From: Escherichia coli | Lineage (GTDB): Bacteria > Pseudomonadota > Gammaproteobacteria > Enterobacterales > Enterobacteriaceae | Strand: one strand, 5' to 3' | NCBI RefSeq assembly: GCF_003018235.1 | Contig: NZ_CP027437.1 | DNA: 64,000 nt | Part shown: piece after piece, positions 5,364 to 47,309 of the stretch | How positions within the stretch are numbered: the first letter of the stretch is position 1 | Layout of the letters: each line of letters starts with the position of its first letter | Program-made: the position numbers and the translations under genes | Notes under the pieces: model-generated | The model's database searches: none | Told to the model about the DNA's origin: nothing | Seen by the model: only the letters and a program-made list of their open reading frames with translations

Positions 5364-5390
5364 TAAACCCGCATATTGCGGGTTTTTTTA
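5364..5390 (+). terminator. intrinsic terminator (AACCCGCA-TATT-TGCGGGTT plus T7)
   Basis: Perfect GC-rich hairpin followed by TTTTTTT. Confidence 0.65.
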
Positions 5391-6930: not shown

Positions 6931-7380
6931 GGATGGATAAAGACATGGTCAGTTCAGGATGCGAAGCAAGTAAACAGATAAGGCTATAAAAAAAACTGAC
7001 AGTAGAAAAATAGCTTTTTCCCAGGTATTCATGAACACAATCTCTTAAAAGCGCCCGCTGATACCAGCGGGCAATACATACTGGCATTGATGTTAAGTTT
7101 ACAGGTTTCATTTATCGTATCGTGCGACACGACGTTGTTATGTTAATAAGTGTGATTTTTGATGTGAAATGTTTGTTGCGTGTTTTTTGATGGGTTTCTC
7201 ATTTTTCAGGCATCATCTCGTCACTGATGTGCAGCACAGCGATGAGGTGCTACTACTTCCACGGAGCGGATTTTGTCTTTTTTGTGGGTGGTAAAAATCT
7301 CCTTATAGCAGGATGTGATAATTATTTATCAGTATAATCTTATGAGATTGACGCGATTTCTCCGGATTTGTTAGAAGATC

Positions 7381-7420
7381 ATGCATGGTGAATCCACCTC
7401 AGCGGTGGGTCATAATGACC
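7381..7420 (+). repeat. about 40-bp conserved motif, copy 1 (GCATGGTGAATCC-hairpin-CATAATGAC)
   Basis: 33 of 40 identical to copy 2 at 7940-7979. Confidence 0.5.
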
Positions 7421-7456
7421 GCCTGTTCGCCGGTTCAATCCCTGCGGGGGCCACCA
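7404..7456 (+). pseudogene. degenerate tRNA: ileX/ileZ-like 3-prime half (CAT anticodon, T-arm, GGGGGCC-A-CCA) lacking a pairing 5-prime acceptor strand
   Basis: 3-prime half aligns closely to E. coli ileX recalled from memory; no 5-prime sequence can pair with the acceptor 3-prime strand. Confidence 0.4.
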
Positions 7457-7457
7457 T

Positions 7458-7534
7458 GCGCCGTTAGCTCAGCTGGACAGAGCAATTGCCTTCTAAGCAA
7501 TCGGTCACTGGTTCGAATCCAGTATGGCGCACCA
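7458..7534 (+). tRNA. tRNA-Arg (anticodon TCT, reads AGA)
   Basis: Cloverleaf folded by hand: 7-bp acceptor stem, perfect 5-bp anticodon stem ATTGC/GCAAT, loop CTTCTAA, T-loop TTCGAAT, encoded CCA. Confidence 0.85.
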
Positions 7535-7535
7535 T

Positions 7536-7610
7536 GCGGTCATCGTATAATGGCTATTACCTCGGCCTTCCAGGCTGATGATGCGGGTTCGATTCCAGCT
7601 GGCCGCTCCA
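7536..7610 (+). tRNA. tRNA-Gly (anticodon TCC), glyT-like with one T-stem mismatch
   Basis: 75 nt, near-identical to E. coli glyT recalled from memory; anticodon loop CTTCCAG; acceptor stem with one G-U; T-stem GCGGG/CCAGC has a G-A mismatch. Confidence 0.7.
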
Positions 7611-7630
7611 TAGAGGATTATGGGGACTGT

Positions 7631-7768
7631 ATGTTGAGTATTTTTCTGCGTTACCTTTCATCGGTAAAAATAAACACACAACAACTATTTATGCTGGCAT
7701 TAGCAATGATAGTTATTGGTTTTCTCGGAACTTGTTTATTTATTTACTATATTTTTGTCGATAATTAA
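7631..7768 (+). CDS. small hydrophobic peptide ORF (45 aa, MLSIFLRYLSSVKINTQQLFMLALAMIVIGFLGTCLFIYYIFVDN)
   Basis: ATG ORF in AT-rich spacer after tRNAs; one predicted TM helix; weak RBS. Confidence 0.25.
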   Translation: MLSIFLRYLSSVKINTQQLFMLALAMIVIGFLGTCLFIYYIFVDN

Positions 7769-7939
7769 TATTTTTAGTATTTAGCCAGAGTGGCCCAAAC
7801 AGAAAATAAAGTTACTGTGAAACAGGGGGGCCTAATAAAAATAATCACCACTAAATTCGGGGCTTTAAAAATGCTAAGAACATCACATTTCATTATGCCG
7901 GGTACTGGAGAATAACATGATGTTTTGTTAAAAATGATT

Positions 7940-7979
7940 TTGCATGGTGAATCCCCCTGTGCGGCGGGGCATAATGACA
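7940..7979 (+). repeat. about 40-bp conserved motif, copy 2
   Basis: See copy 1; a partial inverted copy (GGTCATTGCAG...CACCATGCAG) lies at about 8021-8064. Confidence 0.5.
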
Positions 7980-8321
7980 GATGTTTGGTTGCGTATTGTA
8001 TAGGCAAGTTGCGGATTCTGTCTGGTCATTGCAGAATTCACCGGGAGGCACCCGGCACCATGCAGATAATTGTTTTGTGGATGATAATACCAGCCCCTCT
8101 CCGGAGGGGCTTTCTTATGGGCGAAAAAAAGCCCGGGGAGCCGGGCAATAGCATGAGATATACGTTTTTATAGACGTACAGATTTTAATCAGAATTTATG
8201 GGGCTGCGCAACTGCGTGGCCTTTTTTGTTTTGTGGGCTAAGGTTTTCCCCTTTGATTCGCCATGTGGCTGAACCTGTAGCCCGCCACTGTTCAGACGCA
8301 ATCCCGGCAAGGGGAGGAATA

Positions 8322-10349
8322 ATGGCATTTAAACACTACGATCTGGTCTCTGCCAGCAGCGGTGATGAACTGCAAAAGAAACTGACAGAAAAAATAAATG
8401 AAGGGTGGCAGCCATACGGTTCGCCGCTTGTTTCGTATGACGATAACGGGATGAAAATTATTCAGGCCATTGCAGCAGAGGGTGATGTCAGGATCCCGGT
8501 TGAAACGCCTGATGATGGTGGTGATTCACCGGTCACAATGACCTCCGGTGCACCTGATTATTATTATGTTGTTGTGCTTGCCGGACAGTCCAACGGCATG
8601 GCCTACGGTGAGGGGCTTCCGTTACCGGACTCTTATGACCGCCCGGACCCGCGCATTAAACAGCTGGCACGCCGCAGTACAGTGACGCCGGGTGGGGACG
8701 CCTGTGCATACAATGATGTGATTCCGGCTGACCATTGTCTGCATGATGTACAGGATATGAGCGGTGTTAATCATCCGAAAGCGGACCTGAATAAGGGGCA
8801 GTATGGCTGTGTCAGTCAGGGGCTGCATATTGCCAAAAAACTGCTGTCGTATATCCCGCAGAATGCAGGGATACTTCTGGTGCCCTGCTGCCGTGGTGGT
8901 TCTGCATTCACCACCGGGGCTGACGGCACATTCAGTGAGGTCACCGGCGCATCCGCTGACGCTGCACGCTGGGGTGCCGGTAAACCCCTGTATCAGGACA
9001 TGGTCAGCCGGACAAAAGCGGCGCTGGCCAAGAACCCGAAAAACAGGCTGCTGGCGGTGGTATGGATGCAGGGCGAGGCAGACCTTGCGTCAGGCAGTCA
9101 GCAGCATAACGGGTTATTCACGGCCATGGTTCAGCAGTTCCGGACTGACCTGTCCTCACTTGCTGCGCAGTGCGTGAGTGGCAATGCTGCCACGGTGCCG
9201 TGGATTTGTGGTGATACCACGTATTACTGGAAGGCCACTTATGGCACACAGTATGAAGCCATTTATGGAGCCTATAAGAATCTGTCCGCACAGAATATTT
9301 TCTTTGTACCGTTCCTGACAGATGAAAACGGCGCAAACACGCCAACGAACCAGCCAGCGGAAGACCCGGATATTGTGGCTGTGGGGTATTACGGTGCGGC
9401 ATCACGAACACAGGCGAACTGGACGACAGCGCAACGTGACAGCCATTTCAGCACCTGGGCGCGTCGCGGCATCATTTCTGACCGCCTTGCGTCAGCTATT
9501 CTGGTGCACGCGGGACGTACGTCAGGTTTCATTACCGGTGAAGTTTCTTCTCCGGACACTGCATCCGGTGACGGTGGTTCGTCCACTGATGCGGGTACGG
9601 ATGCGGGGACCGGCACTTCCGGAACAGGAAGTGATGACGCTACCGGAACGACACCAGCCACCGCTGCCATTATTCTGAGTGCAGACGGAGGGGATGTTTC
9701 GGCACAGGGCTGGACGGTGGAAGGCACCACGGTGACCACCACGGCAAACACGGTGACTTCATCGGGTGAGGCGCTGGCGCAGAATGTGCTGAGTGTTCCG
9801 AAACAGAGCGGGGCAGCATGGAAGCTTGTTCATACCACCACAGATGAGCCAGCGGAACTGCTGAACAATGGCGGTGAGTTCCTGTGTCGTTTCCGTATCA
9901 CGGATACTGCCATTGCTGAGGGGCGTTATGCCTTTGGTCTTTACTGGCTTCCGGACGCACAGAAGATACCAGCCGGTGCGACATTCAATAAAACAGGAAG
10001 CGGGATGTCCCCGTCCATGCTCAACTTCTATGTCCAGACGGATGGCAGCAACATAAACCTGTTATCACACTGCAGTACGAAGAGTGCAGGGAATCTGAAG
10101 ATTGGCTCATTCGGTGCATTTAACAATGAATGGCATACCTTCCGTCTTCGCTACCATGGTGGCAATACGGCAAGAGCAACGGTGACGCTGGACAGTCAGG
10201 TGGTGGGAGATATAACGCTGTTATGTGCGCCGTCAGCGGCCAGTGCCGGTGACACTCTGTCGATGATAAGTATCACATCGGGTGATACATACAGTATTGA
10301 AGTGGAAAGCCTGAGTGTGACGGTGAACGGGGCTGCGGCAGCGGCGTGA
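8322..10349 (+). CDS. prophage sialate O-acetylesterase-like protein (NanS-p-like) with long C-terminal Thr/Gly-rich domain
   Basis: GGGGAGGAATA RBS then ATG; SASA-type catalytic motif VLAGQSNGMAYGEG; N-terminal region resembling DUF1737; position equivalent to the esterase gene downstream of stx in Stx phages. Confidence 0.6.
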   Translation: MAFKHYDLVSASSGDELQKKLTEKINEGWQPYGSPLVSYDDNGMKIIQAIAAEGDVRIPVETPDDGGDSPVTMTSGAPDYYYVVVLAGQSNGMAYGEGLPLPDSYDRPDPRIKQLARRSTVTPGGDACAYNDVIPADHCLHDVQDMSGVNHPKADLNKGQYGCVSQGLHIAKKLLSYIPQNAGILLVPCCRGGSAFTTGADGTFSEVTGASADAARWGAGKPLYQDMVSRTKAALAKNPKNRLLAVVWMQGEADLASGSQQHNGLFTAMVQQFRTDLSSLAAQCVSGNAATVPWICGDTTYYWKATYGTQYEAIYGAYKNLSAQNIFFVPFLTDENGANTPTNQPAEDPDIVAVGYYGAASRTQANWTTAQRDSHFSTWARRGIISDRLASAILVHAGRTSGFITGEVSSPDTASGDGGSSTDAGTDAGTGTSGTGSDDATGTTPATAAIILSADGGDVSAQGWTVEGTTVTTTANTVTSSGEALAQNVLSVPKQSGAAWKLVHTTTDEPAELLNNGGEFLCRFRITDTAIAEGRYAFGLYWLPDAQKIPAGATFNKTGSGMSPSMLNFYVQTDGSNINLLSHCSTKSAGNLKIGSFGAFNNEWHTFRLRYHGGNTARATVTLDSQVVGDITLLCAPSAASAGDTLSMISITSGDTYSIEVESLSVTVNGAAAAA

Positions 10350-39153: not shown

Positions 39154-39214
39154 CCTAAAGAATCAAGACGATCCGGTACGCGTGATTTTCTTTTCACATT
39201 AATCTGGTCAATAA

Positions 39215-39243
39215 CCTTGAATAATTGAGGGATGACCTCATTT
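39215..39243 (+). promoter_or_regulatory. sigma32 heat-shock promoter of clpB (CCTTGAA, 14-nt spacer, CCTCATTT)
   Basis: Match to sigma32 consensus CTTGAAA / CCCCATNT. Confidence 0.6.
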
Positions 39244-39282
39244 AATCTCCAGTAGCAACTTTGATCCGTTATGGGAGGAGTT

Positions 39283-41856
39283 ATGCGTCTGGATCGTCTT
39301 ACTAATAAATTCCAGCTTGCTCTTGCCGATGCCCAATCACTTGCACTCGGGCACGACAACCAATTCATCGAACCACTTCATTTAATGAGCGCCCTGCTGA
39401 ATCAGGAAGGGGGTTCGGTTAGTCCTTTATTAACATCCGCTGGCATAAATGCTGGCCAGTTGCGCACAGATATCAATCAGGCATTAAATCGTTTACCGCA
39501 GGTTGAAGGTACTGGTGGTGATGTCCAGCCATCACAGGATCTGGTGCGCGTTCTTAATCTTTGCGACAAGCTGGCGCAAAAACGTGGTGATAACTTTATC
39601 TCGTCAGAACTGTTCGTTCTGGCGGCACTTGAGTCTCGCGGCACGCTGGCCGACATCCTGAAAGCAGCAGGGGCGACCACCGCCAACATTACTCAAGCGA
39701 TTGAACAAATGCGTGGAGGTGAAAGCGTGAACGATCAAGGTGCTGAAGACCAACGTCAGGCTTTGAAAAAATATACCATCGACCTTACCGAACGAGCCGA
39801 ACAGGGCAAACTCGATCCGGTGATTGGTCGTGATGAAGAAATTCGCCGTACCATTCAGGTGCTGCAACGTCGTACTAAAAATAACCCAGTACTGATTGGT
39901 GAACCCGGCGTCGGTAAAACTGCCATCGTTGAAGGTCTGGCGCAGCGTATTATCAACGGCGAAGTGCCGGAAGGGTTGAAAGGCCGCCGCGTACTGGCGC
40001 TGGATATGGGCGCGCTGGTGGCTGGGGCGAAATATCGCGGTGAGTTTGAAGAACGTTTAAAAGGCGTGCTTAACGATCTTGCCAAACAGGAAGGCAACGT
40101 CATCCTGTTTATCGACGAATTACATACCATGGTCGGCGCGGGTAAAGCCGATGGCGCAATGGACGCCGGAAACATGCTGAAACCGGCGCTGGCGCGTGGT
40201 GAATTGCACTGCGTAGGTGCCACGACGCTTGACGAATATCGCCAGTACATCGAAAAAGATGCTGCGCTGGAACGTCGTTTCCAGAAAGTGTTTGTTGCCG
40301 AGCCTTCTGTTGAAGATACCATTGCGATTCTGCGTGGCCTGAAAGAACGTTACGAATTGCACCACCATGTGCAAATTACTGACCCGGCAATTGTTGCAGC
40401 GGCGACGTTGTCTCATCGCTACATTGCTGACCGTCAGCTGCCGGATAAAGCCATCGACCTGATCGATGAAGCAGCATCCAGCATTCGTATGCAGATCGAC
40501 TCAAAACCAGAAGAACTCGACCGACTCGATCGTCGTATCATCCAGCTTAAACTGGAACAACAGGCGTTAATGAAAGAGTCTGATGAAGCCAGTAAAAAAC
40601 GCCTGGATATGCTCAACGAAGAACTGAGCGACAAAGAACGTCAGTACTCCGAGTTAGAAGAAGAGTGGAAAGCAGAGAAAGCATCGCTTTCTGGTACACA
40701 GACCATTAAAGCGGAACTGGAACAGGCGAAAATCGCTATTGAACAGGCTCGCCGTGTGGGTGACCTGGCGCGGATGTCTGAACTGCAATACGGCAAAATC
40801 CCGGAACTGGAAAAGCAACTGGAAGCCGCAACGCAGCTCGAAGGCAAAACTATGCGTCTGTTGCGTAATAAAGTGACCGATGCCGAAATTGCTGAAGTGC
40901 TGGCGCGTTGGACGGGGATTCCGGTTTCTCGCATGATGGAAAGCGAGCGCGAAAAACTGCTGCGTATGGAGCAAGAGCTGCACCATCGCGTTATTGGTCA
41001 GAACGAAGCGGTTGATGCGGTATCTAACGCTATTCGTCGTAGCCGTGCGGGGCTGGCGGATCCAAATCGCCCGATTGGTTCATTCCTGTTCCTCGGCCCA
41101 ACGGGTGTGGGGAAAACTGAGCTTTGTAAGGCGCTGGCGAACTTTATGTTTGATAGCGACGAGGCGATGGTCCGTATCGATATGTCCGAGTTTATGGAGA
41201 AACACTCGGTGTCTCGTCTGGTTGGTGCGCCTCCGGGATATGTCGGTTATGAAGAAGGTGGCTACCTGACCGAAGCGGTGCGTCGTCGTCCGTATTCCGT
41301 CATCCTGCTGGATGAAGTGGAAAAAGCGCATCCGGATGTCTTCAACATTCTGTTGCAGGTACTGGATGATGGGCGTCTGACTGACGGGCAGGGGAGAACG
41401 GTCGACTTCCGTAATACGGTTGTCATTATGACCTCTAACCTCGGTTCCGATTTGATTCAGGAACGCTTCGGTGAACTGGATTATGCGCACATGAAAGAGC
41501 TGGTGCTCGGTGTGGTAAGCCATAACTTCCGTCCGGAATTCATTAACCGTATCGATGAAGTGGTGGTCTTCCATCCGCTGGGTGAACAGCACATTGCGTC
41601 GATTGCGCAGATTCAGTTGAAACGTCTGTACAAACGTCTGGAAGAACGTGGTTATGAAATCCACATTTCTGACGAGGCGCTGAAACTGCTGAGCGAGAAC
41701 GGTTACGATCCGGTCTATGGTGCACGTCCTCTGAAACGTGCTATCCAGCAGCAGATCGAAAACCCGCTGGCACAGCAAATACTGTCTGGTGAATTGGTTC
41801 CGGGTAAAGTTATTCGCCTGGAAGTTAATGAAGACCGGATTGTCGCCGTCCAGTAA
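39283..41856 (+). CDS. clpB: chaperone ClpB; internal GTG at 39727 for the short isoform
   Basis: 857 aa with two AAA+ modules ([16 protein letters not shown]); internal GTG with GGAGGTGA RBS. Confidence 0.97.
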
Positions 41857-42297: not shown

Positions 42298-43839
<1,542 letters not shown>

Positions 43840-43924
43840 CCTTAAAGAACTGTGCTTTGCAGTGCTCACACAGATTGTCTGATGAAAAGTGAAAAGCAAG
43901 GCGTCTTGCGAAGCAGACTGATAC

Positions 43925-44000
43925 GTCCCCTTCGTCTAGAGGCCCAGGACACCGCCCTTTCACGGCGGTAACAGGGGTTCGAATCCCCTAGGGGACGCCA
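43925..44000 (+). tRNA. gltW: tRNA-Glu (anticodon TTC) in 16S-23S spacer
   Basis: Exact E. coli tRNA-Glu sequence GTCCCCTTCGTCTAGAGGCCCAGGACACCGCCCTTTCACGGCGGTAACAGGGGTTCGAATCCCCTAGGGGACGCCA. Confidence 0.98.
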
Positions 44001-44203
44001 CTTGCTGGTTTGTGAGTGAAAGTCACCTGCCTTAATATCTCAAAACTCATCTTCGGGTGACGTTTGAGATATTTGCTCTTTAAAAATCTGGATCAAGCTG
44101 AAAATTGAAACACTGAACAACGAAAGTTGTTCGTGAGTCTCTCAAATTTTCGCAACACGATGATGAATCGAAAGAAACATCTTCGGGTTGTGAGGTTAAG
44201 CGA

Positions 44204-47097
<2,894 letters not shown>

Positions 47098-47189
47098 ACA
47101 ACGCCGAAGCTGTTTTGGCGGATGAGAGAAGATTTTCAGCCTGATACAGATTAAATCAGAACGCAGAAGCGGTCTGATGAAACAGAATT

Positions 47190-47309
47190 TGCCTGGCGGC
47201 CTTAGCGCGGTGGTCCCACCTGACCCCATGCCGAACTCAGAAGTGAAACGCCGTAGCGCCGATGGTAGTGTGGGGTCTCCCCATGCGAGAGTAGGGAACT
47301 GCCAGGCAT
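47190..47309 (+). rRNA. rrfG: 5S ribosomal RNA
   Basis: 120 nt TGCCTGGCGGC...GCCAGGCAT. Confidence 0.97.

Follow-up and report, generated by a model that had tools for sequence, protein, structure and literature searches.

Small single-pass inner-membrane proteins of Escherichia coli (AcrZ, MgrB, MgtS and those of the YohP type) modulate larger membrane proteins, and genome annotation systematically misses small membrane proteins. Type I toxin peptides are often carried on mobile elements and have poor translation signals, while precedents for the expression of genes placed behind phage or host tRNAs are provided by the thrU-tyrU-glyT-thrT-tufB operon, in which tRNAs and an mRNA are co-transcribed, and by the pR'-driven expression of stx. 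Here we describe an open reading frame (ORF) at 7631..7768 on the plus strand of a 64,000 nucleotide (nt) stretch of the E. coli contig NZ_CP027437.1 (RefSeq assembly GCF_003018235.1), the whole of which is referred to as the window. The ORF is located directly behind two tRNA genes in the late region of a lambdoid prophage and, judging from its comparison with homologous loci, is probably a genuine protein-coding gene which has remained unannotated.

The ORF resembles each of these systems in part. With AcrZ, MgrB, MgtS and the YohP-type proteins it shares a size of 30-50 residues, a single (here predicted) transmembrane (TM) segment, basic residues on the predicted cytoplasmic side and a history of being missed by annotation, but its product has no homology to any of them, is prophage-borne and rare, and has no known partner. 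As in the thrU-tyrU-glyT-thrT-tufB operon, the coding frame directly follows a tRNA-Gly(TCC) on the same strand with no terminator in between, although here we infer the co-transcription, and the downstream gene encodes an orphan peptide and not a housekeeping protein. The stxAB genes and other cargo ('moron') genes between Q and the lysis genes occupy the same slot (from the phage tRNAs or Q to STnc100, the esterase or the lysis genes) in the same orientation, whereas the ORF is tiny, lacks a recognisable promoter or terminator of its own and is unrelated to Shiga toxin (Stx). Finally, a length below 60 residues, one hydrophobic helix and poor translation signals are common to the ORF and the type I toxins (Hok/Gef, Ldr, TisB, Ibs, ShoB, ZorO and DinQ).

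The initial annotation had described a 45 amino acid ORF in the AT-rich spacer after the tRNAs, and this is present as described: it runs from the ATG at 7631 to the TAA stop at 7766-7768 (45 codons, or 44 if the TTG at 7634 serves as start), begins 21 nt after the end of tRNA-Gly(tcc), and is translated as MLSIFLRYLSSVKINTQQLFMLALAMIVIGFLGTCLFIYYIFVDN, which includes the hydrophobic helix quoted at the time. Its base composition is 28% G+C and 43% T, in a tRNA-to-STnc100 spacer of 34% G+C. In the program-made ORF list it is seen only at the end of a frame of 127 codons (7385..7768), which crosses both tRNA genes and was rejected as an artefact of ORF definition; database versions of 72, 79 and 108 residues likewise run through the tRNA genes and were rejected as gene-caller artefacts.

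For comparison we assembled 12 intact and mutually distinct alleles, whose sources are complete E. coli genomes, IMG/VR contigs and metagenomes. All 12 have exactly 45 codons, without a single indel and with the stop (TAA or TGA) at the same position, and in all 12 codon 2 is a start codon (TTG, GTG or ATG), with codon 1 varying between ATG, ATA and AAG. Between clade representatives, pairwise identity averages 87% in the ORF, with no indels, 71% in the leader (7611..7630, plus strand), and 60%, with 39 gap columns, in the AT-rich, fast-diverging spacer after the stop (7769..7867, plus strand), so that the conserved stretch is bounded by the start and stop codons. We found no conserved element in this post-stop spacer, with weak promoter-like matches at most on both strands. 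One database variant (P0006) carries an in-frame duplication of seven codons.

The substitutions between alleles also follow the reading frame. In the more divergent pairs, the Nei-Gojobori ratio of nonsynonymous to synonymous differences (pN/pS) was 0.27-0.46 in the frame of the ORF (frame 0), and was higher in both control frames. We then used a placement simulation in which each observed substitution was re-placed randomly on positions with the same base, which keeps the mutation spectrum. In a later run with 41 events in the region common to all three frames, frame 0 showed less BLOSUM62 loss (P=0.004) and less hydropathy change (P=0.0001) than expected, with 15 synonymous changes versus 11.3 expected (P=0.09) and no stops; the corresponding values were P=0.70, P=0.42, 12 versus 10.6 (P=0.35) and two stops for frame +1, and P=0.95, P=0.31, 9 versus 10.8 (P=0.83) and no stops for frame +2. 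An earlier run on codons 3-45 had 44 events (16 synonymous, 28 nonsynonymous and no stops), with a joint probability of 0.011. The frame 0 signal is found in each half separately (codons 3-20, BLOSUM P=0.0007; codons 21-44, hydropathy P=0.005), and since codons 3-20 carry a signal of their own, the N-terminal part is likely to be translated as well, from a start at 7631 or 7634; a start at the internal ATG at 7691 (M21), giving a 25-residue peptide, was considered less likely for the same reason. The initial annotation had counted a lack of conservation of the reading frame in homologous regions among the findings which would speak against its proposal, and the 12 alleles keep frame, length and stop with conservative substitutions; together with the conserved start and the frame-specific purifying selection, this is the pattern by which small-protein genes are recognised, and it points to translation of frame 0. 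The +2 frame was also considered as a gene, as one allele group (L014, L002 and L006-L008) has an ATG right after GAGGATT which opens a 47-codon alternative ORF, but it was rejected, since a start is lacking there in most alleles and no signal of selection is seen.

With regard to the predicted product, AlphaFold2 (using an alignment of 11 sequences) gave a helix at residues 2-11, a break at 12-15 and a second helix at 16-43, with a predicted local distance difference test score (pLDDT) of about 70-76 for the first helix and about 93-94 across the TM segment; the single strongly hydrophobic helix proposed initially is therefore recovered by the model as helix 16-43 (pLDDT about 93). The short N-terminal helix (7634..7663, LSIFLRYLSS) is only weakly amphipathic and is followed by a basic/polar linker, VKIN, while the long helix (7676..7759) holds the predicted TM segment MLALAMIVIGFLGTCLFIYYIFV (codons 21-43, 7691-7759), which has a mean Eisenberg hydrophobicity of 0.86 over 23 residues. 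Residues R7, Y8, S10, S11, K13, I14, Q17, F20 to G30, G33, C35, L36 and Y39 to I41 are invariant among the alleles. Because the basic residues R7 and K13 precede the TM segment and only D and N follow it, the positive-inside rule predicts that the N-terminus is cytoplasmic and the C-terminus is outside. An identity as holin or antiholin was rejected, as there is no charged hydrophilic C-terminal tail and no match to a PHROG or Pfam holin; the prophage already has its own class II holin downstream of the ORF.

Within the ORF, codons 17-30 form a near-invariant core (7679..7720, plus strand) with 97.5% pairwise identity, synonymous sites included, in which the only truly variable site is the fourfold degenerate third position of codon 25, with three states (A, T or G). 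The core holds an imperfect inverted repeat (AACTAT..ATAGTT) around the internal ATG, which is seen as a hairpin in predicted folds. Part of the invariance is due to ascertainment, since some alleles were fished with the core as search pattern, but wobble-tolerant scans with the core yielded no further alleles.

The ORF region was found in 23 of 5426 complete E. coli genomes (about 0.4%), at 26 places which are all chromosomal, and the ORF is also present on a handful of IMG/VR and metagenome contigs. In 50,697 phage records no homologue was found by megablast, blastn or tblastn, and protein matches reached E values of only about 8-9; a wobble-tolerant pattern of the core had zero matches in representative genomes of 100,044 species. 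In metagenomes the core pattern matched five true copies plus two GC-rich chance matches (L025 and L029), while a second pattern from the N-terminal part, searched in IMG/VR, added only chance matches (L033-L037) and was discarded. An exhaustive search of 1.84 billion protein representatives with an 11-allele profile gave five matches, all to the family itself, and a word-indexed protein search gave seven clusters, six of which are named, come from E. coli and bear the label 'hypothetical' or 'putative membrane protein', the remaining one being an unnamed metagenome protein of the Joint Genome Institute; other gene callers have thus called the ORF independently, under these same labels. Pfam, NCBIfam, PHROGs and PADLOC gave no relevant match at E values up to 10, the peptide string was not found in the papers searched, and a literature search on small membrane proteins of lambdoid late operons gave nothing relevant. 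The ORF product is an orphan by all of these searches, and probably represents a new family, carried as rare and dispensable cargo, of what is a very common kind of gene, the small membrane protein. Two genomes contain more than one copy of the region: NZ_CP076709.1, the genome of which is identical to the window, has two, and NZ_CP062876.1 (E. coli O157:H16 Res13-Lact-PEA12-26) has three, with the extra copies presumably in different lambdoid prophages.

The window matches E. coli O158:H23 strain CFIAFB20140388 (100% identity over the 330 nt compared), and the gene order in the RefSeq record places the locus in the late region of a lambdoid prophage: the gene for the antiterminator Q, a DUF4236 gene on the minus strand, a small TrmB-like gene, a DNA methyltransferase gene, tRNA-Arg, tRNA-Gly and an unannotated gap, followed by genes for a DUF6645/SASA esterase, DUF1378, DUF826, the class II holin, lysozyme, Rz1, terminase and the remaining late functions. 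Both tRNAs are on the plus strand and were found by ARAGORN: tRNA-Arg (anticodon TCT, 7458..7534) has an Rfam tRNA score of 69.3 bits and is annotated in the identical RefSeq record, and tRNA-Gly (anticodon TCC, 7536..7610) scores 46.6 bits, with the distance to the ORF counted from its 3' CCA. The order tRNA-Gly, ORF and STnc100 is constant, with tRNA-Gly preceding the ORF in every allele seen, and is embedded on one strand between Q and the tRNAs on one side and esterase, holin and lysozyme on the other.

From the relatives it is clear that the interval between tRNAs and esterase is a hot spot for cargo. In the Shigella phage 75/02 Stx, stxA and stxB are located between Q and an STnc100-like/esterase segment which aligns to 7926-8330 of the window, bearing out the earlier proposal that the ORF sits where related phages carry toxin cargo. 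Other occupants are iraM on the minus strand just past STnc100 in STEC299 (L005 2058-2375), a tciA-like gene annotated as tolA in strains M1 and M3 (L022 1686-2114), tciAB in phage JLK-2012, and an unnamed ORF of 132 amino acids in the tRNA-to-esterase interval of MFDS1022581; the cargo coordinates listed for this interval further include L021 1947-2345 and L038 1803-2395. JLK-2012 also has a similar tRNA-Gly, after which the DNA is unrelated, and because of this junction the ORF can be regarded as a separable cargo unit with its left boundary at the end of the tRNA.

The reading which we favour goes beyond coding capacity, and is held with somewhat less assurance than the coding call itself: the ORF would be an accessory cargo gene of a lambdoid prophage, placed behind the phage tRNAs in the orientation of the late genes and in the slot equivalent to that of stxAB, and its product an inner-membrane peptide which modulates a membrane process. 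The ORF is oriented as Q and all late genes and no terminator separates it from the tRNAs, which makes co-transcription with the tRNAs on a Q-antiterminated late transcript the most economical route, although the late promoter pR' was not located by a simple scan. Processing of the tRNA 3' end would then release the mRNA, whose leader would be about 20 nt long, and translation of the peptide would start at ATG 7631 or TTG 7634 and proceed at a low level. The resulting 44-45 residues would insert into the inner membrane with the short N-terminal helix first, followed by a TM segment ending two residues before the C-terminus. There the peptide may modulate a host membrane protein, the timing of lysis, or exclusion, and the choice among these is a guess; we favour such a modulatory role over that of an addiction-type toxin solely because the hallmarks of type I systems are absent.

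Several observations weigh against a coding gene, and some of them would fit a functionless ORF that arose by chance in intergenic DNA which is young and decays slowly, with apparent conservation due to recent ancestry and recombination mosaicism. When the spacer between the tRNAs and the small RNA (sRNA) is shuffled with dinucleotides kept, 27% of the shuffles hold a complete ORF of at least 45 codons (P=0.27), and among random stop-free peptides matched in base composition 3.4% have an equally strong hydrophobic stretch of 19 residues, so the T-rich composition accounts for part of the hydrophobicity, and the ORF taken from this single sequence is not beyond chance; it is the comparison with homologous loci that makes it more than that. 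This comparison uses a small sample (12 alleles and about 41-44 substitution events), in which the synonymous excess taken alone is marginal (P about 0.09) and the +2 frame is free of stops over 7620-7763 in all 12 alleles. As the initial annotation had noted, the ribosome binding site is weak, and it is also not conserved: the leader has poorly conserved runs resembling a Shine-Dalgarno (SD) sequence (GAGGA at 7613-7617 and GGGGA at 7622-7626), and the best anti-SD match, GAGGA at -5.8 kcal/mol, is 13 nt upstream of the ATG and is absent from two allele groups, which reach only about -2 kcal/mol, while one allele group has GGGAG 5 nt before a GTG start (-7.3 kcal/mol). The Prokaryotic Genome Annotation Pipeline (PGAP) has no annotation at the ORF in any of the 12 RefSeq loci inspected. 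Scans of the leader and tRNAs found no promoter for the ORF, nor a terminator of its own, the sole nearby terminator-like site on the plus strand being weak and upstream of the start (7606-7625) and the first convincing one after the ORF being that of STnc100 (8092-8111); the ORF thus appears to lack the promoter upstream and terminator downstream which define a moron in the strict sense. There are also broken copies: indels of -2 and +5 scramble the TM segment in L022 (strains M1 and M3), frameshifts, a TAC-to-TAA change and loss of the stop are found in two metagenome contigs (L023 and L028), and an IS1 is inserted at about codon 11 in L011 (2458-3038; E. coli 3006) and in L013 (an IMG/VR contig), which yields a chimeric gene call of 56 amino acids (P0005). 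In the metagenome copy L024, with several small indels, decay and assembly error are indistinguishable. Rarity among complete E. coli genomes, absence from catalogued phages, the evident dispensability and the low number of alleles all suit a chance ORF, and we take the broken copies to be what ordinary decay of dispensable prophage cargo leaves behind. However, in the same genomes both flanks have diverged far more than the ORF, and the 41-44 substitution events have produced neither stops nor indels; the conservative pattern is specific to frame 0 (P=0.0001-0.004), with a joint P of about 0.01 for the synonymous excess and lack of stops. Moreover, in the decayed L022 the core that is invariant elsewhere is mutated, as expected once loss of the frame has lifted the constraint. 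We consider a chance origin improbable.

A further point against a simple coding gene is the invariance of the core at synonymous sites, which may reflect an overlapping constraint at the nucleotide level. If that constraint were the whole story, the conserved entity would be a nucleic-acid element (an RNA element in the tRNA-Gly trailer which acts in processing or stability, a hairpin, or a site on the DNA to which a protein binds) with the ORF incidental to it, for which the inverted repeat forming the central hairpin of the predicted fold, the weak ribosome binding site, the presence of two open frames and the lack of a PGAP call could be cited. The fold is, however, not more stable than that of shuffled sequences (z=+0.43 for the plus strand, -1.31 for the minus strand), the RNAalifold covariation term is only -1.24 with compensatory change in two of 48 pairs, and there is no Rfam match over 7611-7867, so neither stability, covariation nor family membership marks a structured non-coding RNA at the ORF. 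Outside the core the substitutions obey the genetic code of frame 0 and no other, which a nucleic-acid element would not give, and the conservation ends at start and stop codons; we think this explanation unlikely. The same core invariance could reflect an RNA pairing site, as would be expected of a type I or other membrane-damaging toxin which depolarises the inner membrane and is restrained by poor translation and an antisense or nearby sRNA. The predicted 44-45 residue hydrophobic peptide with a TM segment at 21-43, together with the weak ribosome binding site, has the general look of a type I toxin; the ORF lies in a slot for virulence and toxin cargo with two sRNA genes within 500 nt, and several alleles share a weak promoter-like match on the minus strand (TTTAAA-17-GATTAT, about 7869-7841). 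That match, which falls in AT-rich DNA, reaches a score of only 8-9 out of 12 (8 in the window); one allele group does not have it, it lies in the least conserved part of the locus, and the promoter and terminator scans found no minus-strand promoter over 7611-7911 and no minus-strand terminator. The ORF is not complementary to STnc100 or the AsxR-like RNA beyond what AT-rich sequence gives by chance, and there is no hidden Markov model match to Hok/Gef, Ldr, TisB, Ibs, ShoB or another family in Pfam, NCBIfam, PHROGs or PADLOC. Unlike type I toxins, the ORF also has no structured leader (its mRNA, with the z of +0.43 given above, is not unusually structured) and no promoter of its own, and its TM segment is at the extreme C-terminus without a charged tail. 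The label of a small membrane toxin or type I toxin-like peptide in the initial annotation thus finds no support, the search for an antisense RNA which it proposed giving no convincing or conserved candidate in sequence scans or complementarity searches, and a toxin of this kind has a low probability in our view. It is equally doubtful that the peptide is a membrane-active phage effector (toxin-like, or acting in lysis timing or superinfection exclusion) which serves as alternative cargo to Shiga toxin and is gated by the core element at 7679-7720, for instance through a hairpin or sRNA-pairing site around the internal ATG.

If the gene is real, it would represent a new orphan family of prophage-borne small membrane peptides, in the very slot which makes Stx phages medically important, and one more item among the loads which lambdoid prophages carry in the stx slot. 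It would be co-expressed with the phage tRNAs, and adjoins STnc100/PasD-like and AsxR/AgvB-like sRNAs that rewire host regulation. Since the family is rare and dispensable, its practical impact would be small unless a phenotype is found.

The conserved downstream neighbour of the ORF in every allele is an sRNA gene of the STnc100 family (7912..8122, plus strand; Rfam RF02076, 145.6 bits versus a gathering score of 47), which is found at the same place in L005, L010, L016 and L021. STnc100 has been described as related to PasD, and such sRNAs as typical of prophages derived from Stx phages (bioRxiv 10.64898/2026.05.13.724894). On the opposite strand, 8124-8179 has sub-threshold Rfam matches to AsxR and AgvB (44.5 and 28.4 bits) with a terminator of its own (8146-8131), and by these matches the two genes are the prophage sRNA pair described for regions derived from Stx phages. 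A conserved block at 7868..7911 (plus strand; 85% identity, no gaps), located upstream of STnc100 in all alleles, probably belongs to the STnc100 gene as its upstream or promoter region, and not to the ORF. The conservation (85%, again free of gaps) extends over 7868-7941 and takes in a weak promoter-like match, TGGAGA-18-AAAAAT, which is itself conserved and begins at about 7906. Its predicted start of transcription would be near 7942, where the GCATGGTG...CACCATGC closing stem begins, and because of this the true 5' end of STnc100 may be about 30 nt inside the Rfam model.

A chimeric tRNA-like stretch is located just upstream of tRNA-Arg (7381-7458). Over its 5' part (GCATGGTGAATCCACCTCAGCGGTGGGTCATAATGAC) it is similar to the 5' portion of STnc100 from 7942 on, and its 3' part is the 3' half of a tRNA(CAT) which relatives carry at this place (L010 2801-2876); ARAGORN finds no tRNA here and Rfam gives a weak STnc100 match over 7355-7586 (25.8 bits). 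By its sequence, the stretch looks like the product of recombination between an sRNA and a tRNA at a common CATAA motif.

Further upstream, a strong intrinsic terminator on the plus strand (5365-5385, AAACCCGCATATTGCGGGTTT and then a run of T) separates the minus-strand DUF4236 gene from the small TrmB-like gene, and could be the late-operon terminator tR', displaced from Q by the inserted minus-strand gene. A type II toxin-antitoxin pair, ParD/ParE (RelE/ParE family), is annotated within the prophage upstream of the Q region, on the minus strand (about 1065-1627 of the window, as derived from record coordinates), and matches to isrK (65 bits) and the C4 antisense RNA (77 bits) adjoin each other at 641-838, in the prophage early region close to the window's left end. 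The right part of the stretch holds a match to the RyfD sRNA (39164-39302) and a complete rRNA operon with 16S, tRNA-Glu, 23S and 5S genes (42298-47307).

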